64,000 nucleotides of DNA, taken from the sequence record DRR723986_585; one strand, written 5' to 3'. The translations under genes were made by a program, and so were the position numbers. Under the pieces are notes generated by a model that worked only from the letters and a program-made list of their open reading frames with translations, was not told the origin of the DNA and made no database searches. Shown piece after piece: positions 30,375 to 63,907 of the stretch (position 1 is the stretch's first letter; each line of letters begins with the position of its first letter).

Positions 30375-33300
30375 TTATTTAACCAATTGAATCCAACCAG
30401 CTTGATTCTGAGTCCCTCCTACTTCAACTACATAAAAATAAGTTCCTGCAGGCAATGGTTTATTTGCCTTGTTATTGCCCTCCCAATAAACTGTTGAATT
30501 GTCGTAATTGGTGAATTGAACCAGAATATCTCCCCAACGATTGTACACATAAACCATATTTTCAGGGAAGCCTTCTATTCCGTCAATTAACCAAATATCA
30601 TTAGTACCGTCTCCATTTGGAGAAAAAGCATTATATACCTCGACAAAACAGCTATCAGAAGGCAGAAAAGTTACTCTTAACGTGTCTTGAACTGAGCAAT
30701 TATATGCATCAATTATTTCAACATAAAAATCAGTTTCAAAGTTAACTGTAGCTTCTGGGTTCACAATGTCTACGTCTGTAATTATTTGGGTATCCATGTC
30801 CCATAAATAATTCACTCCACCACTCGCACCAAGTTGAATAGTTGATGATAAACAAGTCTCAATATCTGGATCTGCCATCATACCAGATATATCAGACAAA
30901 TAATAATTCATACTATCAGCTTCTGAAACACATCCGTCTATTGTAGTGGTGATCAAATAAAAATAATTATCTCCTGGATTTAGAGATAGCGGTGTAAAAT
31001 CAACAGTATTGGACACAACATTAGATTGATCGGCTGTATCAAACCATGTATATGAATCTGCTACCGTAGTTGTAGATAACTGATCGAAATTTTGACCAGG
31101 ACAATAAATTGAATCAGTGCTTGTAATCACAGGAGCTGCAGGCTGATCAAATATCTCAACTGAAGCGGTATGGGAACTAGGACATGTCCCATTTGTTGTG
31201 TAAGTTACTGAATGTGTTCCGGCAGCACCGGTCATGATTCCCGAAGTGGCGTCAATAGTGACTCCAGGACTAGCACTTGTCCATGTCCCACCAGGAGTTG
31301 CAGGTGAAATGTTAGGTGTTGAACCATTACAAAAATCATCATATACAAAAGACGAATCATCTACTGCGGCAGCAAGTACATAAACAGTTGAAGATTCATT
31401 ACAAATTCCAACTGTATATATTACCTCATAGGTAGTACCAATAGTTGTTCCAGACAATTCACCTGTCGTATTATTGATAGTGCCATTAGTGCACATCCAT
31501 GAACCACCAGGTTCGGCTATGTTATAAGGTAAAGGTGTATCTCCTGGACAAAAATCATCAAATGAAAAAGATTCATCAACAACATCTGTAATTTCTGGAA
31601 CTGTGAATGATTCGATTTGCGAGAAACATCCTAATTGATTATCAACAAGTCCAATATTATAAGTACCGGTGGTAATATTCAATGTGTCAATTTGCCCGTT
31701 ATAAGCGGCTCCATTACTGAATGAATAAGAATAATCATTGCTACCACCACCTGCATTTGTAGAGACCGTATCAATTGTAATTGACCCCAGCCCTAAACCG
31801 CAGGTGTCAGGAACAACTGTATATTGGAATGGCAATGCTGGACCTGCATTGATAGTCACAGATTCAGTTAAAACACAACCATTCACATAAGTTGCCTCTA
31901 CATTGTGAGTCCCGGTTGTAGTAAAAATGGTGTCTGGTAATACTATATTAGTTATCCCTCCATCAACTGAAGCAGTTAAAGGCTGAATATCATTCACCAC
32001 TATATATCCATTATTTGCGCCGAAGCAAGATTCATCCACTACATTGGTAACAGAGAATGTTGGGGCCGCTGTCACCGTATCATTTAACGAAAATTCTGAG
32101 GTGTTTGCAGCAGTTCCTGTCATTGTAGCAGCAATTATAGTCCCCACCGGTAGCACCACCCCTAAATCTAAATCAATGGTATCATAAGGATTTGAAGGAT
32201 TAAAGGTATAACTTCCTATAAAGATCTCACCTTCACCGTAACCATTTGCGTCAGGCACGGTGTTTTCATAAACATCAATTCTATACGTACCAATGGCGTT
32301 AGAAGAAAAATATTTAAATGCAATGTGAGTTGTGCCTCCACCGCCACAATTCCATGCTTCAAAAATTTCGGGGGCATCAATTAAACCATTGTTATCAAAA
32401 TTAAAGTTATTCGTGTCATTAGGAAGAATCATATTATCTCCATGAATATCAATGCCTAAATGTGTATTGTTATAAATTGAATTCCCGATTATTGGACAAC
32501 CATACGAAGATCCTATACCAAACCAATCAGTAACATCTACTCCGCCATCACAATTTGTAATCACATTTGCTGAATCTGTACCAACCGATAGACCACCAAC
32601 ATACGTTCCATTTGAATTTTGAATACTGATTCCAACGGAGTCAATAGCACCACTTGTTCCATTAGGTTTGATCCCTATTTCGTTTCCAAAAATTCGATTA
32701 TTAGGTGCATTTGCTAACAAAATACCGTAGCTGTTTAAGCCAACGATTGTGTTACCTTCATTTGGAAGGCCTCCACCTACAACATTATACTCCGCATTTT
32801 GAAGTATAGATACACCAACTCCGGCATTCGCATATATAGTATTACCATCTAAACCTAATCCAATAAAATTTCCTTCTACGTGATTGGAGTCTGTGTCTGC
32901 TCCATAAATCTTAACATAATCTGTAATATCTCCTCCAAAAATGTTTCTTTCAGAGGAGAGTGATCCACCAATAAAATTGTTGTTTGCACCATTCAAAATA
33001 TAAACTCCTGCAGATGCTGTGGAATAACCTACTGAGCCATCAAAGTCAACGCCAATATGATTGGCCTGAATTGTATTCTGTTTAGTTCCCGGTCCTTTAA
33101 TAACAATTTCAGAGTTTGAGTTTCCAGCAACAATGTTTTTTCCAATGATGAAATTACCTACTGAAGCTGTATCCAATACGACACCATCTAACTGATTGTT
33201 GGCTGCAGGATTACTCACTGAACCCTGACCTCCGAGTTCATCATTACCGATATAATTGTTTTCAATAATATTTGAAGATGAATTCTTCACATAAACCCCC

Positions 33301-36300
33301 GCATTTCCATTAGCAGTTATAACGTTTTCAAAGCCAATTCCAGGTGATCCAATGAAGTTGCCTGTTGAAGAACCATCAATACTGATCCCATTATTGCCAT
33401 TAGGAATATAGACGTTATTATCTTTCGATAGGCCAAAATTATTTCCTTCTATAAAATTACCAGATGAAGAATTTATCCAAAGTCCATCTTCAGTATTTCC
33501 GGCAACAACGTTACCTTCATTCATTTGCCAGTCACCACCAAAATTATTGCTTGAACTCCCAATAATAAACATTCCTGTTTCATTCCCGAATCCGGCCGGA
33601 GATGAGTTACCTGAAGTATCTGTTCCAATAAAATTGTTCTCAAAAACATTTCCATTAGAATTATTTTCAAGAATAATTCCTGCAACTTCATTTCCTGAGA
33701 TAATATTTCTTTCACCTGTTGAAGAATTTCCAATTTGATTAGTTGTAGAATTATCAAGGTACACTCCTATCAAATTTGGCGTTGGTATTGTTCCGGTTGC
33801 ATCTAAACCAATAAAATTCCCAATTACCGTGTTTCCTCCTGAGGACTGAAACCCTACTCCTATTGAGTCATTTCCAGAAATCACATTTCTTTGTCCGATA
33901 AGTGCCCCACCGACTGTATTACCAGTTGCTCCGTTTAAGAGAATTACTCCGTAAACATTACCGTTTTCTGGTCCTACTGAATTTCCATACACAAAATTGT
34001 TCTGAGCATTTCCAATTGCCACACCGAAGAAATTTCCAGAAACAATATTACCTTCATTAGTGCTTCCGCCTCCTACTACATTTCCTTGAGCGCTATTATT
34101 AATCCCAACTCCAACATTATTTGGAATGGAGTCACCCAAAACCGCATCCAATCCAATCACATTATTGATAACACTATTGCCGTTAGTGAAATTATCTTCG
34201 ATTCGAACTCCGTAATCATTTCCTGAAATTACGTTACGTTGAAAAGGGTTTACTCCTCCAACAATATTAGATATTGATCCGTTAGAAATTTCTATCCCAG
34301 CGTCTGTATTTCCTCTAGGGAACAGACCAGAAGTATCTGTACCAATCAGATTATTAACTATGCTTTGATTGAAACTTCCATCTATTAATACACCAACCAT
34401 ATTAGCACTAATTACATTATGTGCCCCTGAAGAACTAACACCGATTGGACTATTGCCAGCGGTAGAAGTAATTTCAACCCCTATTGGTTGTTGAATTGAA
34501 CCGGAAAAGCTATTCAAACTATCTAAACCAATTACATTCGAGGATATCGCATTATTGTTGGCGCCATTTTCTATCCTGATTCCAGCTTCATTATTTTGAT
34601 AAACAATGTTCCCAAAGGTACTCAATGGCATTTCGCCAATTATATTATTGGTAGTTGTTGCTCCTCTTAAAACCATTCCGACTTTTTGTAATGGAGAAGC
34701 CAAGGCATCTGCACCAATTACATTACCACCTACCAAATTTCCGTTTGCATGATCTATCAGGATACCTGTTGAATCGTTACCAGCAATATGATTAACATAC
34801 ATCCATCTCTCTCCTCCAATTTCATTCCCTTTTGCTCCTCCTTTGATTCCAATTCCAATATTTTGAGCGCCCATTCCGGAGATGTTTGCACCGGTCAAAC
34901 CTATAATATTTCCAGAAACATGATTCGAGTCGGCTTGATCTATCAAAACGCCATAGTTAACGTTTGATGAAATAGTATTCCCTAAATTCAAGGAAATGTC
35001 ACCCCCAATTTCGTTTTGTTCAGATCCTCCTGTGATTTCGATTCCAATAGCATTACTTGCAGGACTATTAGCTGTCACATTGACGCCTATGTAGTTAAAA
35101 GCCACTTGATTTAAGTCACTTCCTTGATCTATTAGAATCCCTTGATTAGTATTATTAGAAATGTAGTTCCTATTTCCGACACCAGCTGCACTGTATCCGA
35201 TAGTATTATTGTCAGAGTTTTCTAAAAGTACTCCGATTCCATTTGGAATTATAGCATTCCCGCTGTTAATACCAATGTAATTTGACCTTAAAACGTTATT
35301 GTCAGTACCATTTAAATAAATTCCGGAATTAGTATTTCCACCAATTATGTTGTGATTAGGTAACGCAAGGTCTCCTATTTCGTTCTGACCTGAAGGCCCG
35401 TCTATCTGAATTCCATGGACATTCGCCAAAAGTGCGTTTCCTGAGGTATTCCCGATTATATTTTTTAGAATTTGATTATTAAAAGCTGTCCCCGTTATGT
35501 GAACGCCAATTGGACTTGCTACAATAGTGTTGGATTCCGAACCGATTATATTGTCGTCTCCATCATTGATATGAATTCCAGACACATTGTTACCCGCTAT
35601 AGTACCGGCATTGGTGATACCTATGCTTGTAAATCCAACTTCCACATTATCAGACACATCTCCATTGATATAAATCCCGCTTTGACCGTTATTAACGATA
35701 ATATTTTCAGGAGCACTTGTCATACCAATATGAACTGTTGGAGCTTGAACTAGAATTCCATTAAGTGTATTCCCCATTCCTGATGTTACATCACTCGTTC
35801 CTACTCCAATTAAAAATCCATCCATTACCACATTAGGTGATAGAATATGAACACCGTTTTCTACACTTGCACAGATATAGTTTTCGGTTCCAGTAGCACC
35901 AGTTCCTAGTATTACATCATGATCATCAGTTATTCTTATTCCTGTTTGATTTCCTATTGGCGCACTTCCTGTTTTATCAGTTCCAATATAATTATTTTCA
36001 AATACCGTGTTGAATCCCGAAAACTCGCAGAACACTCCTGTATTCCCTGCCCCTGTATGACCAGATATGATATTTGCGAATGCGCCTGATCCTCCAACGA
36101 TAGTATTTGAAACGTTCTCAATTTTTAATCCATTCAATCCATTAGGAATAGCTGAGATACCATCTGCCCTCAAACCAATGTAATTCCCAAAAATATCAGT
36201 TGTACTCGCAAAATCTGTTATTAATATTCCATTCGTAGAATTCCCTGAAATAATATTCCCTTGACCTGCCAGAGAATCGCCTCCAATTACGTTATTAGAC

Positions 36301-38798
36301 CCTCCTTCAATTACAATACCAATCCCGTTCGCTAATTGATTTGAACCATTTTCATCCAAACCAATAATGTTACCTTGAATGACTTGTGAATTTGCACTAT
36401 CAATAAAAATTCCTGCTGTTGAGTTATCTGAAATTAAATTTCCTTGATTTGGACCTCCTATTGAACAACTGCTGGCATTTAATCCAATATATACTCCGAT
36501 ATTATTTCCAACAGTTCCCGACCCATTGTGATCAGTTCCTATAAAATTGTCAAAGACAAAGACTTGACCACCACTGGCTGGGATTGAAATGCCTTGGACA
36601 TTTCCGGAAATTATATTACGTCCATCATTGGTGCCATCTCCAATATTAACAGAATTAATGGCGGCCCCGTCTATAAGAATCCCATAGTTTGTAGTGCCTA
36701 AAGATGCAGTTCCTGTAGATTCTAAACCAATGTAATTTCCGTTAACAAATTCGTCACTTCCGTCAGCAAAATGGATATTTGCAAAGGTATTGGATGTAAT
36801 AATATTTCTTGTCGCATCTCCCAAGTTCCCTCCAATTTGGATACTTGAACCTCCATCTATTCTAATTCCTGTCTGGTTCGGTTGAGCTGAATTCCCTTCG
36901 AAATCCGTCCCAATTTTATTATGAATAATCACGGTTGAACCTGAAAAATATTCTAATATTCCAAAGCTTGAATTTCCACTAATGGTATTTCCTTGCAAAG
37001 GTGCGTGTCCTCCAATTTGATTATCTGACCCCCCATTTCTTATTCCACCAGCTCCTACAATCCCTCCAGAAATAAATGAAAAACCACTGGTATCAAGACC
37101 AATGATATTCCCCATAATTTTATTACTGGAGCCTAAAAGATCAACATTCACGCTATCTAATGCTCCACCAACACCATTACCTGAAATGACATTTCTATCC
37201 GAATTTAAAAATCCTCCAATGATACAGTCGGAGGCAGTAATTCTCACGCCAGTAGATTGATTTGGTTTGGCATTTTGATTTTGATCAATTCCAATCTGGC
37301 ATCCGATCATTTGGGTATTACTAGCAGCCAATAAAACACCGGAATCATTAAAATCTGTGATCCTAACTCCACTTAACACAGAGCCAGGCACTCCGACCAT
37401 TTGCACCCCAAAAGTATGCCCTAAAGTGTTGACAATATTCACTTCAATATGACCTCCGTTTAATCCCGTACCAGAATTTGATTTTGGTCCAGGTATTCTT
37501 GTGCCTGTTAGTGAATAGCCATCAATGTAAGTTGGAAATCCTGTTTCCAGAATTGGTTGTACAGGGTGAATTTCAAAACCAAGCGGTAAATCAAATTCAA
37601 CATAATTTTCTGGATTATAATTTTGAGCAACAGCCCATGGCAGCCTGCCTGGAACATTGTTATCACCTCCTGGATTTGTTACCCTCAACAGAGTGTATTC
37701 ACAGGCTCCGGCATCTCCGAATGGATTAAAATCAACACCTGCAGGGGTGTTGGAACTCAATTGACGCGGAGCACGTCTTGCATCTTTTAATGGTGCGGCA
37801 AGCCCCGTGTTTGGCACAATTCCACAATATGAAGAGGCTGAATCTACAATGGTAAAATATTTCAATCCATAACCATCTTCTACAATTGTAGCATGCAAAA
37901 AAGGCTGAACACTTGATGAGTTATCTCCAGGAGCACAACATCCCCATGGCATTGGTTCAGTGGTTCCATTATTTGGGGCAATAACATTTCCACCTTGACT
38001 TATAAAACCTGGGCCATCAAACTGGTTAATCCCTGGAGATCCATTTATGGCTCCTGCATTTCCTTTCATGTCCACATTTCCTCCTCCTGTTAACATTACT
38101 ACACAGGAACCATCTTGACTTGAGTTGTTATCCTTAAACGTGTTATGAACAAAGTTACTCTCTACATAACTTGTATTAATAGCAACGGCTCCACCGGAAA
38201 AGCCTGCACTCATGGCAGAATTATTGAAATAGGTACAGTTTGCCGATTTTAAAACGCCCTCTTGCACATATATCGCTCCTCCATATTGATCGGAAGAGTT
38301 ATTAATAAAAGAGCAAGCCAACAGCAGTAAGGGAGACACATTATCTCCTAAATAAAAGATAGCCCCACCATCAGAACCCGTCATTTGAAAATTTTCAAAA
38401 AGACAATTTTCAATATATACTTGACCTGTATTACCAACTATTCTCAGGGCCCTGTGTCCTGAACCACTCCCTTTAAATCCGATATTTTCAATTTTTAAAT
38501 TATTGGAGTTGGTAATATCAATTAAACTACCAGCAAAACCATTTCCAGAAATATTAAAGTAGGCGGGGTAAGGACCGATTACGGTGACATTTGTGGCAGA
38601 AAGAACCATTGTTGTGTTCAAAACCAAATTTCCAGCAACATTAACTATAACGGTATCACCAGAATTTGCACTATTTATTTCACCTTCAAAAGACCCAGGA
38701 CCATTAATGTTAAGGTTATTGACTACCTTAATTATTGAAAATCCCGATAACGAAAAGAATAATAGACATATAAATGTCAGGAATTGTAGTTTTTTCAT
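30375..38798 (-). CDS. 2807-aa beta-helix-repeat surface protein with T9SS type-B (gliding-motility-associated) CTD
   Basis: Signal peptide; many GN.IG.D..G / IGG...N.ISGN repeats; CTD NAFSPNGDGTND...YNRWG...GTYFY. Confidence 0.92.
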   Translation of the reverse strand: MKKLQFLTFICLLFFSLSGFSIIKVVNNLNINGPGSFEGEINSANSGDTVIVNVAGNLVLNTTMVLSATNVTVIGPYPAYFNISGNGFAGSLIDITNSNNLKIENIGFKGSGSGHRALRIVGNTGQVYIENCLFENFQMTGSDGGAIFYLGDNVSPLLLLACSFINNSSDQYGGAIYVQEGVLKSANCTYFNNSAMSAGFSGGAVAINTSYVESNFVHNTFKDNNSSQDGSCVVMLTGGGNVDMKGNAGAINGSPGINQFDGPGFISQGGNVIAPNNGTTEPMPWGCCAPGDNSSSVQPFLHATIVEDGYGLKYFTIVDSASSYCGIVPNTGLAAPLKDARRAPRQLSSNTPAGVDFNPFGDAGACEYTLLRVTNPGGDNNVPGRLPWAVAQNYNPENYVEFDLPLGFEIHPVQPILETGFPTYIDGYSLTGTRIPGPKSNSGTGLNGGHIEVNIVNTLGHTFGVQMVGVPGSVLSGVRITDFNDSGVLLAASNTQMIGCQIGIDQNQNAKPNQSTGVRITASDCIIGGFLNSDRNVISGNGVGGALDSVNVDLLGSSNKIMGNIIGLDTSGFSFISGGIVGAGGIRNGGSDNQIGGHAPLQGNTISGNSSFGILEYFSGSTVIIHNKIGTDFEGNSAQPNQTGIRIDGGSSIQIGGNLGDATRNIITSNTFANIHFADGSDEFVNGNYIGLESTGTASLGTTNYGILIDGAAINSVNIGDGTNDGRNIISGNVQGISIPASGGQVFVFDNFIGTDHNGSGTVGNNIGVYIGLNASSCSIGGPNQGNLISDNSTAGIFIDSANSQVIQGNIIGLDENGSNQLANGIGIVIEGGSNNVIGGDSLAGQGNIISGNSTNGILITDFASTTDIFGNYIGLRADGISAIPNGLNGLKIENVSNTIVGGSGAFANIISGHTGAGNTGVFCEFSGFNTVFENNYIGTDKTGSAPIGNQTGIRITDDHDVILGTGATGTENYICASVENGVHILSPNVVMDGFLIGVGTSDVTSGMGNTLNGILVQAPTVHIGMTSAPENIIVNNGQSGIYINGDVSDNVEVGFTSIGITNAGTIAGNNVSGIHINDGDDNIIGSESNTIVASPIGVHITGTAFNNQILKNIIGNTSGNALLANVHGIQIDGPSGQNEIGDLALPNHNIIGGNTNSGIYLNGTDNNVLRSNYIGINSGNAIIPNGIGVLLENSDNNTIGYSAAGVGNRNYISNNTNQGILIDQGSDLNQVAFNYIGVNVTANSPASNAIGIEITGGSEQNEIGGDISLNLGNTISSNVNYGVLIDQADSNHVSGNIIGLTGANISGMGAQNIGIGIKGGAKGNEIGGERWMYVNHIAGNDSTGILIDHANGNLVGGNVIGADALASPLQKVGMVLRGATTTNNIIGEMPLSTFGNIVYQNNEAGIRIENGANNNAISSNVIGLDSLNSFSGSIQQPIGVEITSTAGNSPIGVSSSGAHNVISANMVGVLIDGSFNQSIVNNLIGTDTSGLFPRGNTDAGIEISNGSISNIVGGVNPFQRNVISGNDYGVRIEDNFTNGNSVINNVIGLDAVLGDSIPNNVGVGINNSAQGNVVGGGSTNEGNIVSGNFFGVAIGNAQNNFVYGNSVGPENGNVYGVILLNGATGNTVGGALIGQRNVISGNDSIGVGFQSSGGNTVIGNFIGLDATGTIPTPNLIGVYLDNSTTNQIGNSSTGERNIISGNEVAGIILENNSNGNVFENNFIGTDTSGNSSPAGFGNETGMFIIGSSSNNFGGDWQMNEGNVVAGNTEDGLWINSSSGNFIEGNNFGLSKDNNVYIPNGNNGISIDGSSTGNFIGSPGIGFENVITANGNAGVYVKNSSSNIIENNYIGNDELGGQGSVSNPAANNQLDGVVLDTASVGNFIIGKNIVAGNSNSEIVIKGPGTKQNTIQANHIGVDFDGSVGYSTASAGVYILNGANNNFIGGSLSSERNIFGGDITDYVKIYGADTDSNHVEGNFIGLGLDGNTIYANAGVGVSILQNAEYNVVGGGLPNEGNTIVGLNSYGILLANAPNNRIFGNEIGIKPNGTSGAIDSVGISIQNSNGTYVGGLSVGTDSANVITNCDGGVDVTDWFGIGSSYGCPIIGNSIYNNTHLGIDIHGDNMILPNDTNNFNFDNNGLIDAPEIFEAWNCGGGGTTHIAFKYFSSNAIGTYRIDVYENTVPDANGYGEGEIFIGSYTFNPSNPYDTIDLDLGVVLPVGTIIAATMTGTAANTSEFSLNDTVTAAPTFSVTNVVDESCFGANNGYIVVNDIQPLTASVDGGITNIVLPDTIFTTTGTHNVEATYVNGCVLTESVTINAGPALPFQYTVVPDTCGLGLGSITIDTVSTNAGGGSNDYSYSFSNGAAYNGQIDTLNITTGTYNIGLVDNQLGCFSQIESFTVPEITDVVDESFSFDDFCPGDTPLPYNIAEPGGSWMCTNGTINNTTGELSGTTIGTTYEVIYTVGICNESSTVYVLAAAVDDSSFVYDDFCNGSTPNISPATPGGTWTSASPGVTIDATSGIMTGAAGTHSVTYTTNGTCPSSHTASVEIFDQPAAPVITSTDSIYCPGQNFDQLSTTTVADSYTWFDTADQSNVVSNTVDFTPLSLNPGDNYFYLITTTIDGCVSEADSMNYYLSDISGMMADPDIETCLSSTIQLGASGGVNYLWDMDTQIITDVDIVNPEATVNFETDFYVEIIDAYNCSVQDTLRVTFLPSDSCFVEVYNAFSPNGDGTNDIWLIDGIEGFPENMVYVYNRWGDILVQFTNYDNSTVYWEGNNKANKPLPAGTYFYVVEVGGTQNQAGWIQLVK

Positions 38799-52997: not shown

Positions 52998-53119
52998 ACC
53001 TGGTCAACCCGCATAAAATCAAAGAATAACGAACTGAATTACAGTCACTTAATTTACTCTACCATTTCCATAGAATTTGAGTAAATAAATACTTATATTT
53101 GGGGGAATTCACTTACTTC

Positions 53120-56100
53120 ATGATTCTTACTCAAGAAGAAATAGCGACCATTGATCTGAGCAACTTAGAGGCTTGGAAAATTGTTCGTACCGATCCTACG
53201 AAAACGGTACTCATTGCTAAAGAGAATCTTAAACGTTCACAAGAATTAGAATACGCAAAAGGAATCGCTTGGTCATATGGCAACTTGGGTGCGGCAAACG
53301 TGTGGTTAAGTGATTATGAAAAAGCTTTATCCTATTGTTTTCAGGCAGTTGACTTATTAAATCAATGTGGTGAGTTTAAACAAGAGGTTCAACTCCACTA
53401 TTATCTTTCAATTGTATTTTATTTCTTAGGAGATAGCGCTAAACAGCTAGAGCATGCTGAACGATCATTGGCTCGTGCTAGTGATATTGATGACCTACAT
53501 GGCCAGGCCAATGCCTTTAACGGAATTGGTACTGTTCATTATACCAACGGTGACAATGAAGCCGCAATTGAGAATTTAAATAAAGGACTTGAATTAGCAA
53601 TACAGGGTGAAGATTTGGCCTTGTTGGCAAGAATTTATGATGGTTTAGGTAACAGCTATACCAACCTAGAAAAATATGACGAGGCGCTTGAATACATGAA
53701 TAAGGCCCTTGAGATTCTTGAGAAAATTGATGTCAAACAAACGCTCTCCTATGCGCATGATGGAACCGGAACCATTTATGCAAAACTGAAGAACTATCCT
53801 AAAGCATTAGAACATTTTACTATTTCTTTCAAACTAAGAGAAGAAATGGGATTCAAAGATGGTATGGGTACCACCAAATTGCATATGGGAGAAACCTACT
53901 CTCTTGCTGGTGACAATCTATCGGCGGTTCAAAGTTTTAAAGATGCGCTTGAAATTGGAAATGAACTGGGATCATTTGAACTCATTTACAAATCGCACGA
54001 AGGATTGTCAGAGTTGTACGAGGACATGGGGAATTTGACCTTATTCGTAAAACATTTCAAAGCTTTTCATTCAGCAAAACAAAGCTTTTTTAACGAAGCT
54101 GAAGATAAAAAGATAAAAGCCTTTGAGTTAAAAGGACGACTGGATCAAATCCAAAAAGAGAAAGACGATTTAGAACGTAAAAATGCACAACTAGAAAATT
54201 ACTTCAAGGATGTTCAAACCCTAAGTAGTATAGGTCAAGAGATCACTTCTACCCTTGACATTGAAGCAATTTTCCAAATTATCTATGAGCGCATTAACTC
54301 TTTAATGGATGCGCAAGGGATTTTTATCGGTGTTTGTAATTATGATGAAAATAAGCTTGAAGTTAAGCTAGCTATTGATGGTGGTACAAGGGATGCCTAT
54401 TTTGAATATTCACTTGATGATCGAAAATTATCTAACTATACGGTAAAAACGGGCAAACATGTACATATAGGTGATTATCAAAATGAGGTCACTAAATACA
54501 TAAAAGAAGGTGAAGTATTGTTGCATAACGCACCAGAGTCTGTAATTGTATTACCCCTGTCAGTTAAAGAAACAACGATTGGGATACTTTATGCGCAAAG
54601 TGATAAAAAGAATGCCTTTACGAAACATCACCTAAATATTCTAACCAGTTTTGCTTCTTACCTTTCAATTGCAATTGATAACGCTGATCTCTATGAAAAG
54701 ATGGATGCCAAAGTTCAAGAGCGAACTGTTGAACTCCAAAAAACATACGAGAATTCAGAACTACTGAATAAAATTGGACAAGAGTTAATTTCTACCCTTG
54801 ATTTTGAAAGTGTTTTTGAAAGATTGTATCAAAATGTAAATAAATTAATGGACGCCTCAGTATTTGGGGTGAGATTAGTTGACTTTGAAAGAGCTGTCAT
54901 TGAGTATCCCTTTGAATATGAAAAAGGAGTTCGATTAGAGCCAGGAGAGGCTGACTTCAATAATGAGAATAATTACTCAGCCGTTTGCATTAAAAAGAAT
55001 GAACCGATTCTAATCAATGATAACCGCGCCGAATATTCAAAATGGGTAAATGAAATCTTTGTCGTTGATGGAGAAATGCCTGAGTCGTTAATATTCTACC
55101 CGCTTGAGGTAGATGGAAAAGTAATAGGATGTATCAGTTCGCAATCTTTTGCGAAGAACGCCTATACTCCTTACCACTTGACGATTGTTAAAACGCTTGC
55201 TCAATATACCTCGCTAGCACTTAAAAATGCTAAAAATTATGAGGTAATGGAAGACAAAGTTCGTGAAAGAACAAAAGAAATTACAAAAACCTATGAAGAC
55301 TCAAAATTACTGAGTGAAATAGGAAAATCAATTACTTCTCAATTAAGTGTTGAAGCAATTATCGAAGTAGCATACAAAAACATTAACCAGTTAATGGATG
55401 CTGAAGGATTTGGAATTGGAATCTATAAAGAAGATGCAAATGCTCTTGCTTTCCCAGGCTACATTGAAAGTGGTCAACGATTGGATGGCGCAGATTATGA
55501 TTTAAATGACATGGACCGTATGGCCTGTGTTTGCTTCAATAGAGATGAAGAATTGATCCTAAATGACTTTGAAAATGACTATTATAAATACATCAATAAG
55601 TATTTGGAACCTAGAGTTGGAAGATCTGTTTCTTCTTTGATTTATTTGCCATTGAAAGCAAAAGGAAGAAAAATTGGAGTAATTACGGTTCAAAGTTTTA
55701 AAACAAACTCTTATTCTGAATATCAGGTGAACATGCTCCGTTCGATAGCTTTGTACACAGGAATTGGAATGGATAATGCCAGTCTCTATGAGCAAATGGA
55801 CGAAAAAGTTCAGGCTAGAACCGCTGAACTTCAAACAACCTACGACAATTCAGAACTTCTTAATAAAATTGGTCAAGAATTAATTTCCTCTCTAGACTTT
55901 GAAAATGTATTTGAAAGATTATACGCTAACGTAAATAAATTGATGGATGCCACTGTATTTGGAGTCCGAATTTATGACAAAGAAGCCAACATGATCCGCT
56001 ATCCTTTTGAATATGAAAAAGGCAGAAGATTAGGGGTTATGGAGGCTACAATGGATAATGACAACAATTATTCAGTAGTTTGTATTAAGAAAGATGAACC

Positions 56101-58258
56101 CATTTTGATCAATGATAATGTCACAGAATATAAAAAATGGGTGAATGAGATTGTTGTGATGGACGGGGAAATGCCAAGTTCATTAATCTTTTTCCCACTT
56201 CGCGGAAAGGATGGCGTTTTAGGTGTCATCTCAGTTCAATCTTTTGATAAAAATGCCTATTCACCTTATCACCTTACTATTGTGCAAACTCTCGCTCAAT
56301 ACACAGTTCTGGCTTTGGAAAACGCTAGAAGTTTTGAAGTGATGGAAGAAAAGGTGAAAGAAAGAACGGCTGAAATTCAAAAGGCCTTTGAAAACACTGA
56401 CTTATTGAGTCGAATTTCGAAAGAAATTGCTGCGGAATTATCAGTTGAAGATATCATTTCAAAAGTATATTCCAACGTGAATAATTTAATGGACGCTGAA
56501 GTTTTTGGAATTGCTATTCACCGACCAGAATCGGATGATTTATTCTTCCAAGGCGCAATGGAGAAAGGCACACGATTGTCTGATTTTAGTTATCCTTTAT
56601 CAGATGAAAAAATATCTACCATTTCCTTTAAACAGAATAAAGAAATTCTCATCAATGATTGGAAAAATGAGTATCAACAATATTTAGAAGAGGATTACCA
56701 AGCAGTTGAAGGAGATATGCCTGAATCAATGATTTACATCCCATTATCTTCAAAAGGAAACTTGATTGGGGTATTAACGGTACAAAGTTTTGAAGTTGAC
56801 GCTTACTCTGATAATGACCTTAATATTTTACGTGCAATATCTGTAAGTATAGGCTCAGCAATTGAAAATGCTAATCTTTATAAAGGTTTAGAAGACCGGG
56901 TAAAAGAAAGAACAGAGGAAATTAATCAGGCTTATCAGAACACGAAATTGATGAGCCAGATATCGAAAGATATCGCACAGTCCTTGGAAATTGAAACCAT
57001 TATCAGCTCAGTATATAAAAACATCAATACCCTGATGGATGCCACCTGCTTTGGTGTGGGTATTTTTGATCCTGAGAAGAAAAGAATCTCTATGCCTGGA
57101 TTCATAGAAAATGGCGCAAAAATGGAAGAGTTTGGGTACGAACTTTCTGATGAGAGACTGGCGACTTACTGCTTTAACAACAACGAGGAAATCGTGATTT
57201 CAAATTATTTTGAGGAATACTCGAAATATATAAAAGGACTGCAAGCCCCTGTTTCAGGTAAAGACTCTACCTCTATCGTCTATATACCAATTAGTTTAAA
57301 GGATAAAATAGTGGGATTGTTGACAGTTCAAAGTTATGAAGTAGCAGCCTACACAGAATATCATGTAGATATTTTAAGAAGTTTGGCAACAACTATTGGC
57401 GCTGCTCTAGAAAATTCTAGACTCTATGAGAACATGGAAGATAAAGTAAGGGAAAGAACAGCTGAGCTTTATCAACAAAAAGAGATCATTGAAGAAAAAA
57501 ATAAACACATCACTGACAGTATCATCTATGCCAAACGAATTCAAGATGCTACGCTGCCAAGTGCAGGATTAGTAAGATCTCATTTGCCTGAATCGTTCGT
57601 GTTGTTTAAACCAAAAGATATCGTTTCTGGAGATTTTTATTGGATAAGTGCTGTTGGAGACGAAGTGTTGTTTTCAGTAGTAGATTGTACTGGACATGGT
57701 GTTCCTGGAGCATTTTTAAGCTTAATTGGTCATAACAGCTTGAATCAGATTGTGAATGAATTATCAATTACACAACCGTCTGAAATACTGTATACTTTAG
57801 ATAAAATTGTTTACAAGACCTTGCAGAACAATCTTGAAACTACCAATATTAAGGATGGCATGGATATGTCCATCTGTAGTTATAATAAAATCACCAAAAA
57901 ACTACAATTCTCTGGTGCCTACAATCCACTTTACTTAGTGAGAGAAGGTGAATTAACCGAAATTAAAGGAGATAAGATTGCTATTGGATCGGGACAAACT
58001 GAAAAGAAATACACGAATAACGAAATTCAATTAGAATCTGGAGATTGTATTTACTTGTCTTCTGACGGCTATGCTGATCAATTTGGAGGTGAAAAAGGTA
58101 AGAAATTCAAATACTCAAATTTCAAAAAATTGTTGGTAATGAATCATCTTCAATCCATGTCAAGACAGCATGACATTTTAGAAATGACAATTGATGAATG
58201 GCAAGGTGATCTTGAGCAACTAGATGACGTTTGCGTCATTGGCGTAAGAATTGACTAA
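53120..58258 (+). CDS. Soluble TPR + six GAF + SpoIIE/RsbU-type PP2C phosphatase
   Basis: N-terminal TPRs; six units of about 182 aa ending N..Y/F..(M/L)..(K/R)V..RT; VSGDFY, DCTGHGVPGA, DGMD, SDG, DDVC. ATG 53120 follows TATATTTG at 53094. Confidence 0.92.
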   Translation: MILTQEEIATIDLSNLEAWKIVRTDPTKTVLIAKENLKRSQELEYAKGIAWSYGNLGAANVWLSDYEKALSYCFQAVDLLNQCGEFKQEVQLHYYLSIVFYFLGDSAKQLEHAERSLARASDIDDLHGQANAFNGIGTVHYTNGDNEAAIENLNKGLELAIQGEDLALLARIYDGLGNSYTNLEKYDEALEYMNKALEILEKIDVKQTLSYAHDGTGTIYAKLKNYPKALEHFTISFKLREEMGFKDGMGTTKLHMGETYSLAGDNLSAVQSFKDALEIGNELGSFELIYKSHEGLSELYEDMGNLTLFVKHFKAFHSAKQSFFNEAEDKKIKAFELKGRLDQIQKEKDDLERKNAQLENYFKDVQTLSSIGQEITSTLDIEAIFQIIYERINSLMDAQGIFIGVCNYDENKLEVKLAIDGGTRDAYFEYSLDDRKLSNYTVKTGKHVHIGDYQNEVTKYIKEGEVLLHNAPESVIVLPLSVKETTIGILYAQSDKKNAFTKHHLNILTSFASYLSIAIDNADLYEKMDAKVQERTVELQKTYENSELLNKIGQELISTLDFESVFERLYQNVNKLMDASVFGVRLVDFERAVIEYPFEYEKGVRLEPGEADFNNENNYSAVCIKKNEPILINDNRAEYSKWVNEIFVVDGEMPESLIFYPLEVDGKVIGCISSQSFAKNAYTPYHLTIVKTLAQYTSLALKNAKNYEVMEDKVRERTKEITKTYEDSKLLSEIGKSITSQLSVEAIIEVAYKNINQLMDAEGFGIGIYKEDANALAFPGYIESGQRLDGADYDLNDMDRMACVCFNRDEELILNDFENDYYKYINKYLEPRVGRSVSSLIYLPLKAKGRKIGVITVQSFKTNSYSEYQVNMLRSIALYTGIGMDNASLYEQMDEKVQARTAELQTTYDNSELLNKIGQELISSLDFENVFERLYANVNKLMDATVFGVRIYDKEANMIRYPFEYEKGRRLGVMEATMDNDNNYSVVCIKKDEPILINDNVTEYKKWVNEIVVMDGEMPSSLIFFPLRGKDGVLGVISVQSFDKNAYSPYHLTIVQTLAQYTVLALENARSFEVMEEKVKERTAEIQKAFENTDLLSRISKEIAAELSVEDIISKVYSNVNNLMDAEVFGIAIHRPESDDLFFQGAMEKGTRLSDFSYPLSDEKISTISFKQNKEILINDWKNEYQQYLEEDYQAVEGDMPESMIYIPLSSKGNLIGVLTVQSFEVDAYSDNDLNILRAISVSIGSAIENANLYKGLEDRVKERTEEINQAYQNTKLMSQISKDIAQSLEIETIISSVYKNINTLMDATCFGVGIFDPEKKRISMPGFIENGAKMEEFGYELSDERLATYCFNNNEEIVISNYFEEYSKYIKGLQAPVSGKDSTSIVYIPISLKDKIVGLLTVQSYEVAAYTEYHVDILRSLATTIGAALENSRLYENMEDKVRERTAELYQQKEIIEEKNKHITDSIIYAKRIQDATLPSAGLVRSHLPESFVLFKPKDIVSGDFYWISAVGDEVLFSVVDCTGHGVPGAFLSLIGHNSLNQIVNELSITQPSEILYTLDKIVYKTLQNNLETTNIKDGMDMSICSYNKITKKLQFSGAYNPLYLVREGELTEIKGDKIAIGSGQTEKKYTNNEIQLESGDCIYLSSDGYADQFGGEKGKKFKYSNFKKLLVMNHLQSMSRQHDILEMTIDEWQGDLEQLDDVCVIGVRID

Positions 58259-60011: not shown

Positions 60012-60605
60012 CTATTCAACTTTTCCTTTTAATGCTATAATGGCATCATAGGGTCCATCTACAATAAACATATTGATAATCCAAGTTGGTAAGCTTCCAC
60101 CTGGATCTGCCAAGAATTGATAATGCAACTCAGTTTTTGTTTCGCTAATTGAAGTCAATTTCCAAAATCCATCTGCAGCCGGCATTCGCACCACTCCACT
60201 AACATTAGGTTTACCGGTCGATTTTGTGAAATTTAGTACCGTTATCCCTTTGTCATTATCAACATCCACAGAAAGCAACATCACGGCGTCTCTGTCTGAA
60301 GCTGGCCATGGCAAATCTAAACGATAATAATACTTGCGTTGAGTTGAACTTATTTTCTCAACCAACTTAGCATCAGAACAATCTGGAAACCAATTAGGAT
60401 AATCTGTCACACGAGCAATTACTTTGGCAATAGCCAATCTAGATGCGTTAATGGTTGAAATGGCTTTAAATTCTAAAATGTCTGTACCAGCAGATTTGCG
60501 GGTATACACTTTAATTCCATCTTCATTTTTTTCGAGGGTCCAATCAGAACAGAAACTAAGCGAACAATAAAAAACAAAACAAACAGAAAGAAAAAATCTG
60601 TGCAT
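60012..60605 (-). CDS. Exported START domain protein
   Basis: WTLEKNEDGIKVY, LPWPASDRD, DPGGSLPTW. Confidence 0.9.
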   Translation of the reverse strand: MHRFFLSVCFVFYCSLSFCSDWTLEKNEDGIKVYTRKSAGTDILEFKAISTINASRLAIAKVIARVTDYPNWFPDCSDAKLVEKISSTQRKYYYRLDLPWPASDRDAVMLLSVDVDNDKGITVLNFTKSTGKPNVSGVVRMPAADGFWKLTSISETKTELHYQFLADPGGSLPTWIINMFIVDGPYDAIIALKGKVE

Positions 60606-60723
60606 ATAATGACAATGTTATTGTTATCTCCTCATAAAATTAAAACAATTTAAAACTGAATCAACTAAAATCTACAGTTAAATAACCTGCTCCCAATAAA
60701 TCACAAGTTTTTACCATTTTTTT

Positions 60724-60791
60724 TACGTATTTACCCTGATTCGTCTCAGTATAAATACTGATGCTATTTTAAATGTGTCTGGCTAGTTTTG
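60724..60791 (+). promoter_or_regulatory. 7-2-7 operator sites plus -7 promoter element of the ETR-like operon
   Basis: Perfect TCAGTAT-AA-ATACTGA at 60746-60761; degenerate 16-mer tacgtatttaccctga at 60724-60739; TAGTTTTG at 60784-60791. Confidence 0.55.
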
Positions 60792-60807
60792 AAACTTTTC
60801 CTACACT

Positions 60808-61308
60808 ATGAATGAACTTACCGAATTCTTCACCAAATTATTAGAAGTAGAAGCATGGCCACCGAGATGGTATTGTGGGACCTGGACCTCATTCCACGGT
60901 TGGTTATACATACTGAGTGATCTTGCCATTTGGTTGGCTTATTTTTTTATTCCGGTTATTATCATTTTGTTCATTCAAAAAAGACCAAACATCCCATTTT
61001 TACCGGTATTTTGGTTATTCGGGGCGTTCATCCTATTGTGCGGCATGACGCATGTTATAGATGCTATTATTTTTTGGTGGCCTGCCTACGGACTCAGTGC
61101 TCTGGTCAAATTTTTTACCGCAATTGTCAGTTTTGTTACTGTTTTTGCCCTTATTAGAGATTTACCGAAGCTCTTAGATATCACAACAAGACATAAACCC
61201 AATCCTACTGAAGAAGATGTAAAAAGCATTCAAGATCAGCTAGATTTAAAAGATATGCAGATTGAATCTCTTCAAAAAGAACTGGACCGTCTGAACAGAA
61301 AAGGCTGA
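60808..61308 (+). CDS. Stand-alone ethylene-receptor-type (ETR1 N-terminal) three-TM sensor
   Basis: SDLAIWLAYFFIP and FGAFILLCGMTH align to ETR1 SDFFIAIAYFSIP and FGAFIVLCGATH; short C-terminal coiled coil; no output domain. Confidence 0.88.
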   Translation: MNELTEFFTKLLEVEAWPPRWYCGTWTSFHGWLYILSDLAIWLAYFFIPVIIILFIQKRPNIPFLPVFWLFGAFILLCGMTHVIDAIIFWWPAYGLSALVKFFTAIVSFVTVFALIRDLPKLLDITTRHKPNPTEEDVKSIQDQLDLKDMQIESLQKELDRLNRKG

Positions 61309-61349
61309 AAAATATAGGACAAAATATCGCCCTGTTAGCCCTGGCCCTG

Positions 61350-62789
61350 ATGCTCACGGCAATGATTTATTTATTGGACTTCAAAGCACCGAATAATGTT
61401 GCCTCTGGTGTTGCTTATGCAATTGTAATTTTCTATAGCTGGCTATTACCATGGAAACATTCCACCATTGTATTCGGTGTTTTTTGTACTGTTCTACTCA
61501 TCATCAGTTATCAGACCGGAGCTAAAGACGGAGTAGAAACAAATACGGCCATCCTTAATGTAGTTTTTTCGATAATCGCCATTTGGTCTTGCGCTCTAGT
61601 TGTTTTGATTGGACGCAAATCATTAGATTCAACTGAGAAAGCAAAAATTAACTTGGCTAAACAAGTTGAAATTAGAACGCGTGATCTCAAATACAGTGAG
61701 CAGCGTCTAAAAGAAAGTGAACAAATCTATAGAAATCTGTATGAACACGGGAACGAAATGTTCTTTTCTATTGATGCTAAAGATCATTCAATCATCAAGT
61801 GCAATAAGACTTTAACGAATTGGTTTGGAATTGATAAGGAAGATATTTTGGGTAAACCAATTTCTAAACTATTTGATGAGCTAAACGCAGATAAAATTAT
61901 CAATAACGTGGTTTCCAAAAAAGATCCATATCAAGATCTACAATTGCATATTAAAAACAAATTAGGCAACACTAGAGATGTGGCCTTTCATTTCACATCA
62001 GTAAAAACTGAAATTGATTCATATTTCATGTGCAGCTTAACCGACATAAGTCAACAAATTGAAGACGCACGCAAAATTCAGGTTCAGAATGAATTACTTA
62101 TTAATAAAAATGCCGAGCTAGAACAGTTTGCTTATGTAGCTTCGCATGATCTTCAAGAGCCTCTTAGAACCGCTTCAAGCTTCATTGGTCTTGTATTGGA
62201 AAAATACTCTGATGGAATAGACGAAAACGGAAAAGCATTTTTGCGCCGAATTGTTGGAGCCAACAATCGAATGAAAAATTTAATTCAAAGCATTTTGGAT
62301 TATTCAAGAATCGGAAAAAACACGCAAATAGCGGAGATCGATTTGAATAAAATAGTAAACGAAATTCTGCAAGACTTCCATTCCATCATTTCAGAATCAG
62401 ATGCAGACATACACGTCCAACAACTTCCTAAAATCAACGGTTCTTACAACGAAATTCGAATTCTTTTTCAAAACTTAATTTCAAACGCTTTAAAATTCAA
62501 ATCAGACAATCGTCCTGTTAAAATTGAAATAAGTAGCGAGATTCAAGATCGTAATTTCTTTATTCATGTAAAAGACAATGGAATTGGTGTCGAGCCTCAA
62601 TTTAAAAAGCGAATATTCTTGATTTTTCAACGATTGCATACCAGAGATGAGTACGAAGGAACAGGAATTGGACTCGCACAGGTCAATAAAATAGCCCAAT
62701 TTCATGAGGGGTCCATCAAACTTGAAACAGAATTAGGCAAAGGATCAACTTTTTCCCTGCAGCTACCGATTAGTCGTTTGGTGAGCTAA
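61350..62789 (+). CDS. Membrane PAS-domain sensor histidine kinase (true start may be upstream, e.g. CTG 61305)
   Basis: N-terminal TM helices, PAS (CNK...FG...EDILGK), H-box ASHDLQEPLR, NLISNALKF, DNGIG, GTGIGL, GKGSTF. Confidence 0.93.
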   Translation: MLTAMIYLLDFKAPNNVASGVAYAIVIFYSWLLPWKHSTIVFGVFCTVLLIISYQTGAKDGVETNTAILNVVFSIIAIWSCALVVLIGRKSLDSTEKAKINLAKQVEIRTRDLKYSEQRLKESEQIYRNLYEHGNEMFFSIDAKDHSIIKCNKTLTNWFGIDKEDILGKPISKLFDELNADKIINNVVSKKDPYQDLQLHIKNKLGNTRDVAFHFTSVKTEIDSYFMCSLTDISQQIEDARKIQVQNELLINKNAELEQFAYVASHDLQEPLRTASSFIGLVLEKYSDGIDENGKAFLRRIVGANNRMKNLIQSILDYSRIGKNTQIAEIDLNKIVNEILQDFHSIISESDADIHVQQLPKINGSYNEIRILFQNLISNALKFKSDNRPVKIEISSEIQDRNFFIHVKDNGIGVEPQFKKRIFLIFQRLHTRDEYEGTGIGLAQVNKIAQFHEGSIKLETELGKGSTFSLQLPISRLVS

Positions 62790-62791
62790 AT

Positions 62792-63907
62792 TCAATCAAA
62801 ATTTTCAATTCGTTTTTCTCCCTGCTCATCCCAGTACTGCCACTCTCCTATTTGCTTGCCGACCTTGTATTTGCCTTGCATTTTCTTCTTACCGTTTTCG
62901 TAATAATCAATGCGTTCTCCATCTAACTCTCCATTTAACCAGTTCGCTTTGACTTCAAGTTTACCAGATTCATAATTTCTGAAATACGGCCCTGATGAAA
63001 GTCCATCAACCTTTGTTTGCTGAAAATGAATGTTTCCATTTTCATAATAGGCCGTACATACCCCAGCATATTCTCCTTTGTGCTTTTTACCCGATTCTTT
63101 CTTATTACCGTTTTTGTAATAAACCACATATTCGCCTTCCAACGTGTCATTTACAAAATTCCCTGTGGTATGTAAAGTTCCGTCTTCGTAATAATTCTTA
63201 GCTGAGCCTTCTTTTAATCCATCAATATTTTCACCTTCGTAACGTATGTTTCCATTCGGATGATACCAAATCTCAGGACCAGATAATTGACCCAAAAAGT
63301 AATTCAAACGCTTTAATAGTGTGTCGTTATAATAGATTTTATACTCTCCGTGATATTGACCGAGCATGCTAAAGTTTTCTCTTGTAATACTATCTTCTGA
63401 TGAGTACTCGATTGATTCACCCATAGGAAAACCACTGAAATATTTAGAGTCAATAATGGTTTTACCATTTTCATCTTTCACAATTTCATGCTCAATAAGC
63501 AAGTCTTTTTTCCAACTGATAAACACCTCATTATCAGACTCTAGATAATCATTCAAATTAGATTTTTTCTTCGGCAATTTTACGGTTAATGTTACAGCAA
63601 TTCCTGACTCCGCAACATCCACTTTTGAAATGGTAACACCCACTTCTTCGTGAATAGTAGAAAGATTTCCCTTTTTATCTTCAACGCCTTGATGAATAAT
63701 TAAAGTAGCTGGAGTACCGTCAGTCGGTTGATAAGACTTTTCGCATACAAACATAAGCTTCACTTCATCAGATTGAAGGTCTACAACGGCTGCACCAAAC
63801 AATAGGTCAGTTTGCTCAACAGCCGAGGTCATATCAGCAGTTTGAGAAAAACTAAGCGTTTGAAAAAATAAGAAAAGGCAAAATAGAAATTGTGAGTTTT
63901 TAATCAT
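62792..63907 (-). CDS. Exported MORN-variant repeat (YwqK-like) protein
   Basis: Signal peptide from ATG 63907; repeats G....YYE(N/D)G in the C-terminal half. Confidence 0.85.
   Translation of the reverse strand: MIKNSQFLFCLFLFFQTLSFSQTADMTSAVEQTDLLFGAAVVDLQSDEVKLMFVCEKSYQPTDGTPATLIIHQGVEDKKGNLSTIHEEVGVTISKVDVAESGIAVTLTVKLPKKKSNLNDYLESDNEVFISWKKDLLIEHEIVKDENGKTIIDSKYFSGFPMGESIEYSSEDSITRENFSMLGQYHGEYKIYYNDTLLKRLNYFLGQLSGPEIWYHPNGNIRYEGENIDGLKEGSAKNYYEDGTLHTTGNFVNDTLEGEYVVYYKNGNKKESGKKHKGEYAGVCTAYYENGNIHFQQTKVDGLSSGPYFRNYESGKLEVKANWLNGELDGERIDYYENGKKKMQGKYKVGKQIGEWQYWDEQGEKRIENFD

Follow-up and report, generated by a model that had tools for sequence, protein, structure and literature searches.

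The Arabidopsis ethylene receptor ETR1 begins with an N-terminal domain (ETR1_N) of three helices, to which a helical linker is attached; GAF, kinase and receiver domains come after it, and the signal goes to CTR1. Alanine substitution at any of seven residues (D25, Y32, I35, P36, I62, C65 and H69) abolishes ethylene binding in ETR1, and Y32, I35, P36 and I62 are reportedly needed for the binding. D25, C65, H69 and K91 are named as functional residues in PMC10266040, with copper coordinated by Cys65 and His69 and a polar bridge between Asp25 and Lys91. In bacteria, SynEtr1 (Slr1212/UirS) of Synechocystis is one cyanobacterial protein with the ethylene-binding domain fused to phytochrome-like and kinase domains, and it is also light-sensing. 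AzoEtr1 of Azospirillum brasilense is a single polypeptide of 525 amino acids (aa) with a regulator gene adjoining, and its residues 1–130, which include the seven ETR1 residues, show saturable ethylene binding (PMC11819568). The 64,000 nucleotide (nt) stretch DRR723986_585, hereafter called the window and numbered over its full length, carries on the plus strand a gene for a stand-alone ETR1_N protein of 166 aa with a C-terminal coiled-coil helix (60808..61308, the sensor; open reading frame (ORF) list, Pfam PF25487 and model helices), followed on the same strand by a histidine kinase gene (61305..62789 from a proposed CTG start, or 479 aa from the canonical ATG at 61350; ORF, Pfam and alignments). 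By every sequence test the sensor is a member of the ETR1_N family, and the split architecture departs from the characterised receptors. We propose that the two proteins form a split receptor where a Cu(I)-dependent ethylene co-sensor would act in trans on the kinase, a proposal to which we give about an even chance.

An earlier annotation made from the sequence alone (the original prediction) had listed D38, Y45, I48, P49, I75, C78 and H82 in the 166-aa protein at a constant offset of +13 from ETR1. All seven can be read directly in the translation, and their spacing of 7-3-1-26-3-4 is that of ETR1 D25/Y32/I35/P36/I62/C65/H69. The comparison with a hidden Markov model of the ETR1 N-terminus that it had suggested gives a Pfam ETR1_N (PF25487) match on residues 30–124 with an E value of 2.3e-35 and 121.2 bits (cut-off 27), spanning profile positions 2–96 of 97. 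No GAF, HisKA or HATPase domain is found in the sensor by the Pfam scan, and an NCBIfam scan gives no match. An AlphaFold2 model built on 28 relatives (mean predicted local distance difference test score, pLDDT, 78.9) has helices at residues 2–13, 29–58, 65–88, 92–127 and 135–165, where the second to fourth are the predicted membrane helices and the last one is the terminal coiled-coil helix, in accordance with the three transmembrane helices and terminal coiled coil described before. Membrane helix 1 (60892..60981) contains D38, Y45, I48 and P49, helix 2 (61000..61071) I75 together with C78 and H82, the putative Cu(I) ligands, and helix 3 (61081..61188) K101 and T104; position 101 is the putative equivalent of ETR1 Lys91. 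The C-terminal helix, residues 135–165 (61210..61302), should be cytoplasmic and is modelled with pLDDT 93–97 as a block. A topology with the N-terminus out and the C-terminus in is suggested by the positive-inside rule on K58/R59 and R117/K121.

Ahead of helix 1 lies a conserved segment W17–Y34 (WPPRWyCGtWtsFHGWLY, 60856..60909) that falls outside the Pfam model and is poorly modelled in part, with pLDDT below 50 at residues 16–24. Its C23 and H30 are invariant in the alignments, and by analogy with Cys4/Cys6 of ETR1 the C23 might form a disulfide in a dimer; in place of the ETR1 pair of cysteines there is here one invariant Cys23, in a WPPRWxCG motif. The ethylene-binding domain resembles no solved structure in searches of the PDB by sequence (no significant match, the best being ThiT with E 0.12) or by fold (Foldseek with the sensor model, no match at E≤0.001).

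The original prediction described the characterised bacterial receptors, SynEtr1 and AzoEtr1, as fused to a kinase, which agrees with the published descriptions of them. SynEtr1 is similar to the present system in having a bacterial ethylene-binding domain and a histidine-kinase phosphotransfer to a response regulator, and AzoEtr1 in its N-terminal three-helix domain with the seven residues, its PAS histidine-kinase output and its two-component operon. The sensor, however, has no output domain and ends at the stop codon 61306–61308, so that the one-polypeptide architecture of both is not found here. In the window the proteins are separate and there is no regulator beside the kinase, and the kinase has a four-helix membrane domain of its own, unlike AzoEtr1. 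A functional analogy to an output-less domain is found in the plant, where truncated etr1(1-349) can signal via other receptors in trans. Full-text literature searches gave no account of such a stand-alone domain with a kinase partner, either in Bacteroidota or in other groups.

The search among proteins of 91–291 aa gave at least 299 relatives at E≤1e-3 among 346 candidates, and the 120 short relatives listed are 151–181 aa long, 54–96% identical and all contain PF25487. They come from sources including Maribacter, Algoriphagus, Gramella, Tenacibaculum, Reichenbachiella, Cyclobacteriaceae and Chitinophagales and are annotated either as 'hypothetical protein' or as 'Ethylene receptor 1-like N-terminal domain-containing protein'. 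Of 1203 longer candidates, 489 proved to be relatives; in the 120 listed (373–867 aa, 46–65% identical) ETR1_N is joined to HisKA/HATPase, with PAS, GAF or receiver domains additionally present or absent. Bacteroidota thus have many fused forms, and the stand-alone proteins make up a conserved class besides these. The original prediction, which knew of no characterised stand-alone example in that phylum, is to be amended by the fused ETR1_N kinases that are common there. The fused Bacteroidota kinases, such as P0121 and those of Mucilaginibacter and Spirosoma, share the binding domain and the WPPRWxCG motif, but their domain is covalently joined to HisKA/HATPase and they have no separate four-helix membrane domain. 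P0121 (378 aa) aligns to the entire sensor with 57% identity over residues 1–161, and as this alignment is gapless also in the terminal helix of the sensor, the helix corresponds to the linker into the phospho-acceptor helix of the fused kinases.

A scan of one genome per species gave at least 600 pattern matches, at least 578 of them confirmed by tblastn, and the locus counts, neighbourhoods and tree given here are from the best 80 of these at least 578 loci, picked for their similarity to the profile of the stand-alone form. Of the 80, 31 have an ETR1_N ORF of less than 260 aa and 49 have a fused one. In the 29 paired stand-alone relatives D38, Y45, P49, I75, C78 and H82 are each found in 29/29 and I48 in 28/29. 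At position 101, K or R is found in 28/29 (21 with R, 7 with K), and the remaining one has L. The fused class has the same overall residue pattern, with I75, C78 and H82 each in 49/49. P18, W21, C23, G24, W26 and H30 are identical in all 29 paired stand-alone and all 49 fused relatives (invariant in alignment A1), and the motif WPPRWxCGxWxxFHGW (C23, H30) before helix 1 is common to both classes.

A quick maximum-likelihood tree, built from 130 columns of the binding domains, puts the window together with 28 paired loci on one side of a branch with a Shimodaira-Hasegawa-like approximate likelihood ratio test (SH-aLRT) value of 68, and 28 of those 29 rows, the window included, are on a branch with 85. 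The stand-alone label needs 2 changes on the tree, versus a shuffled mean of 25.4, and the clade covers Flavobacteriales, Cytophagales and Chitinophagales by record titles, while the short loci L023, L036 and L037 group with fused forms. That close relatives might carry the domain fused, and the present copy be a truncation, had been named as a way in which the prediction could fail; with at least 299 short relatives and one stand-alone clade this is not borne out, and membership in this conserved clade shows that the sensor did not arise by truncation of a kinase. Going by record titles, most carriers are Bacteroidota from marine or other aquatic settings, such as Maribacter, Algoriphagus, Marivirga, Cyclobacterium and Crocinitomicaceae. 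The module occurs seldom and unevenly; ETR1_N is present in 1/61 sampled genomes of the family of the nearest genome and in 21/401 sampled genomes of the phylum, where 2/25 places over the cut-off lie in an open frame of less than 260 aa.

The linkage survey of stand-alone homologues that had been called for shows a kinase neighbour in 29 of the 31 stand-alone loci, all from other genomes, where a same-strand kinase with a homologous N-terminal membrane domain is located directly downstream. By BLASTP the N-terminus of the downstream kinase matches residues 1–110 of the window kinase in 28/31 loci, with 24–91% identity, and L023 has on inspection the same layout, with a membrane-PAS ORF and then a split catalytic ORF. 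In L036 and L037 (190 aa) the kinase is absent downstream. Between the stop of the sensor and the first codon of the longest kinase ORF, the distance is -8 nt in one locus, -4 in five, -1 in 13, 0 to 9 in eight, 26 in one and 41 in one, the last being L002, a near twin of the window. The kinase start consequently overlaps the sensor stop in 19/29 loci, and the distance is at most 9 nt in 27/29.

A third conserved gene of about 140 aa is found 3' of the kinase in 21/28 loci, and of the seven loci without it two stop at a contig edge. All six third-gene ORFs that were scanned are receiver-only proteins. The usual module consists of three genes with a receiver-only regulator as the third, and the trait of SynEtr1 and AzoEtr1 that a cognate regulator lies beside the receptor is thus seen in these 21 related loci and not in the window. 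The regulator gene is missing at the locus in the window, L002, L003, L010, L013 and L018. The earlier statement that no response regulator is present in the window holds, as a profile of 20 operon regulators detects no receiver domain among its 52 ORFs of at least 80 aa and BLASTP of six operon regulators gives no match to it; as a control, the same profile finds 21 receiver domains in G001, the nearest genome used, which has a sensor with 97% identity to the one in the window. G001 also contains an orphan gene for a 131-aa receiver-only protein by Pfam (L136, 1498–1893, minus strand), with no kinase gene adjoining, which is the top match of this genome to the operon-regulator profile (76.8 bits versus 42.1 for the next). 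It may be regarded as a candidate partner of the window kinase, nothing more.

That a PAS histidine kinase follows the sensor, as originally predicted, is confirmed by Pfam matches to PAS_9 (residues 137–235 counted from the ATG, 61758..62054, E 2.9e-11) and to HisKA (257–322) and HATPase_c (367–474), which make up the catalytic core (62118..62771, E 2.1e-09 and 3.1e-22). The gap of 41 nt between the two genes is probably unreal, because the kinase very probably begins 5' of the ATG at 61350. The kinase frame is open upstream to 61266 and encodes KNIGQNIALLALAL ahead of this ATG, and in the CTGA junction (61305..61308, plus strand) a CTG in the kinase frame (61305–61307) overlaps the TGA of the sensor (61306–61308). 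A start at this CTG adds 15 codons and completes the first membrane helix, while the ATG would cut the helix; the CTG also aligns to the ATG start of the L003 kinase. In the 15 upstream codons the window and L002 differ by 4 synonymous and 1 non-synonymous changes, versus 3/3 and 0/5 in the other frames, and most of the 150 best relatives from the database have a membrane domain that starts at residue 10–45, and not at residue 1, with a hydrophobic helix before it. The kinase start is thus probably the CTG at 61305 and not the ATG, and initiation at or near the CTG might occur by termination-reinitiation or by near-cognate initiation. The CTG-started kinase would have four membrane helices and both termini in the cytoplasm.

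Some transcription data bear on the pair. Of the sampled words, 44% are present in one metatranscriptome library, X1, and an X1 contig of a close relative spans 60922–61750 (829 nt, 20 differences), bridging the sensor-kinase junction, with a second X1 stretch covering 61721–62755. The seawater metagenome contig X2 covers 60884–61652, and X3 covers 61141–61386 with zero differences. There is a weak hint here that a close relative transcribes the pair; that the flanking genes are uncovered by RNA-library contigs was not used as evidence, and word shares below 0.2 in runs X3–X19 were not used for habitat. Scans for promoters and terminators in the region 60400–63100 gave nothing above shuffled expectation. 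A Bacteroidota -33/-7 pattern has 2 matches in the window versus 5.2 expected, neither of them 5' of the sensor, and the sole promoter-like element is a weak -7-like TAGTTTTG at 60784–60791.

The junction also bears on the explanation that the 166-aa ORF is what is left of a decaying fused ETR1_N kinase, as a truncation or pseudogene, or is one part of a single gene to be joined by a frameshift. Such an origin would fit with the fused relatives that reach 57% identity over the full length of the sensor, and with the kinase frame being open for 14 codons 5' of the sensor stop; the topology would also allow a fusion. Against this, the stand-alone length is kept among the 120 short matches listed and the binding residues are invariant, the two-ORF layout recurs in 29/31 loci with the kinase's own ATG over the stop in most, and the contigs X1, X2 and X3, from three other samples, have no insertion or deletion and leave the CTGA junction unchanged. 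This explanation is highly improbable, and is largely refuted by these observations. A gene-fission origin was considered from the similarity of the kinase cores, where residues 134–375 of P0121 are 45% identical to the window kinase core, and was rejected as not specific. With 48 fused ETR1_N kinases the window core shares a median identity of 34.6%; with 12 unrelated flanking kinases the median is 28.1%, but single ones of these reach 40–46%.

The N-terminal membrane domain of the kinase (61305..61634) comprises about 110 aa with four predicted helices, and in its alignment A2 the residues D10, Y23, Y29-S30-W31, P34, N70 and W79 are conserved, with no conserved Cys or His. Pfam gave nothing over the cut-off on 28 members, with sub-threshold matches to MASE6, MASE1 and PilS-type domains only. 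The possibility that it is a diverged ETR1_N was rejected (hhalign probability 25% over 19 columns). A search with its profile against 1.84 billion representatives gave 2217 matches at E≤1e-3, of which 308 reach E≤1e-10 and 31 reach E≤1e-30, and the domain is usually located at the extreme N-terminus of PAS/HisKA kinases, often with no ETR1_N gene as a neighbour; it is present in 17/401 sampled phylum genomes at E≤1e-3. In the partner kinases the number of cytoplasmic PAS domains varies from 0 to 3 and the membrane domain is constant. The three tested of those with 372–385 aa all consist of the membrane domain, HisKA and HATPase, with no further sensor domain.

Kinases that depend on an accessory protein for intramembrane sensing are known in BceS with BceAB, LiaS with LiaF and WalK with YycHI. 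They resemble the present pair in the short loops between the kinase membrane helices and in an accessory membrane protein of the same operon that is presumed to deliver the signal, and the corresponding arrangement, an accessory membrane protein and a kinase as same-strand neighbours, is found in 29/31 of the stand-alone loci. Their accessory proteins are unrelated to ETR1_N, however, and the interaction has been demonstrated there, whereas here it is proposed.

We suggest that the products of the two genes work as a single signalling unit and amount to a bacterial ethylene receptor in two pieces. The sensor would be an ethylene-binding domain of the inner membrane, with its N-terminus out and its C-terminus in, and would dimerize by way of Cys23, which is invariant and would be periplasmic, and of the coiled coil in the cytoplasm. 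Cu(I) would be held between helices 1 and 2 by D38, C78 and H82, and ethylene would be bound there. The signal would then pass in trans from the sensor to the co-translated kinase through contacts with its four-helix domain, through the juxtamembrane coiled coils, or through both, and would alter autophosphorylation and phosphotransfer to a receiver-only regulator. This regulator would be the third operon gene in most relatives, and in the window lineage it would be encoded elsewhere or lost. In favour of this reading are the strictly kept binding residues, the bacterial precedent of 130 aa that binds ethylene, the conserved and mostly overlapping gene order, and the lack of any other input domain in many partner kinases. 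For the more specific idea of a natural trans-acting ethylene-binding copper protein that signals to an otherwise input-less kinase via helix-helix or coiled-coil contacts we would put the chance at somewhat below even.

Several points weigh against the split receptor. Copper and ethylene binding is predicted from sequence throughout the stand-alone clade; the 80-locus sample is biased to the stand-alone profile and many of its loci are kin; the X1 contig is not proof of a single transcript, DNA carry-over being possible; and there is no regulator at the window locus. The PAS domain of the window kinase could supply its own input. Six loci with a near-full-length membrane domain (L084–L087, L089 and L092) have no upstream ETR1_N gene, which indicates that the membrane domain is a wider unnamed kinase module of which one subfamily is paired with the sensor, and that the kinase family is not generally sensor-dependent and may sense by itself. 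A fusion of ETR1_N to the four-helix domain is seen in none of the 8 proteins scanned from the 150 listed, in which the membrane domain starts at residue 41 or later. A complex prediction of the sensor with kinase residues 1–125, in which alignments were unused, scored 0.00 and has no weight either way.

The same trans architecture could also serve another signal, such as copper or silver availability, the redox state or another Cu(I) ligand (another alkene, carbon monoxide or nitric oxide). What is seen in the clade is conservation of residues and not a particular ligand; the invariant C23/H30 motif outside the Pfam model could add a metal site, and the carriers are mostly marine or aquatic by record title and not plant associates. 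Ethylene is, however, present in surface seawater. All seven ethylene-binding residues of ETR1 are kept, and the AzoEtr1 domain with the same seven residues binds ethylene (PMC11819568). We regard a signal other than ethylene as unlikely.

The small protein might, alternatively, have no sensing part in the kinase pathway and instead serve as a membrane scaffold or anchor, inhibit or activate constitutively, or form a cation-permeable oligomer, with the kinase responding via a membrane or PAS domain of its own. The rice receptors OsERS1/2 are reported to be cation-conducting, which needs the N-terminal Cys pair and not Cys65 (PMC13261662), short ETR1_N proteins occur on viral contigs with no kinase nearby, and the kinase membrane domain exists elsewhere without the sensor. 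On the other hand, the copper and ethylene residues that are reportedly dispensable for conduction in rice are invariant here, which argues for selection on ligand binding, and the stop/start overlap with the kinase in 19/29 loci suits a signalling partner better than a channel. A non-sensing role is quite unlikely.

If the split receptor is real, marine Bacteroidota would sense ethylene by a three-component system, and ethylene perception would be extended to marine and aquatic members of this phylum; we know of no study of ethylene signalling in these groups. This would suggest algal or photochemical ethylene as an environmental cue for aquatic Bacteroidota. How ligand binding in the membrane changes the output of the plant receptors is still debated, and two small separable proteins would make this step, from the ethylene-binding domain to its output, open to study. 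A conserved sensor of about 160 aa with a dedicated kinase would give a minimal separable system for structure determination, binding assays and reconstitution. Should the sensor not bind ethylene, the pair would still be a conserved module of an accessory protein and a kinase.

ETR1_N relatives are also encoded on 12 IMG/VR contigs, and four of these are short stand-alone forms over the Pfam cut-off, of 128–269 aa and 63–103 bits (L131:5001–5384, L128:4944–5636, L134:4974–5438 and L130:4782–5588). The gene on L131 is located between the terminase large subunit (phrog_979, E 1.9e-158) and the portal gene (phrog_2662, E 1.4e-70), and that on L128 directly 3' of the portal gene; L128 and L134 have Asn in place of Asp38. 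The four look like phage-borne ethylene-binding-domain proteins without a nearby kinase, and the Atlas clusters agree. Phages, too, would thus have taken up relatives of the stand-alone form.

Genome G144 has two ETR1_N genes in tandem (L102:1414–2091 and 2209–3288), the first encoding 225 aa with ETR1_N and a partial HisKA match only and the second ETR1_N, PAS_3 and HisKA; here a short ETR1_N protein has come about in another way. Locus L049, from a record titled uncultured Bifidobacteriaceae, encodes a fused ETR1_N kinase under an Actinomycetota label that nests with Bacteroidota on the tree, and the label is probably a binning or labelling error and not a sign of gene transfer.

Among the other genes in the window, a START-domain protein with a signal-peptide-like N-terminus (60012–60605, minus strand, Pfam E 4.5e-11) is divergent from the sensor and is placed outside the module, because no loci but L001 and L002, which are near-identical, keep it in this place. 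About 2.5 kb 5' of the sensor lies a plus-strand gene (53099–58258) for a protein of 1719 aa that combines TPR repeats and six GAF_2 stretches with a SpoIIE/PP2C phosphatase domain at the C-terminus. On the minus strand an ORF of 2807 aa (30375–38798), with a C-terminal CHU_C type IX secretion signal as its sole Pfam match, presumably encodes a giant secreted or surface protein.

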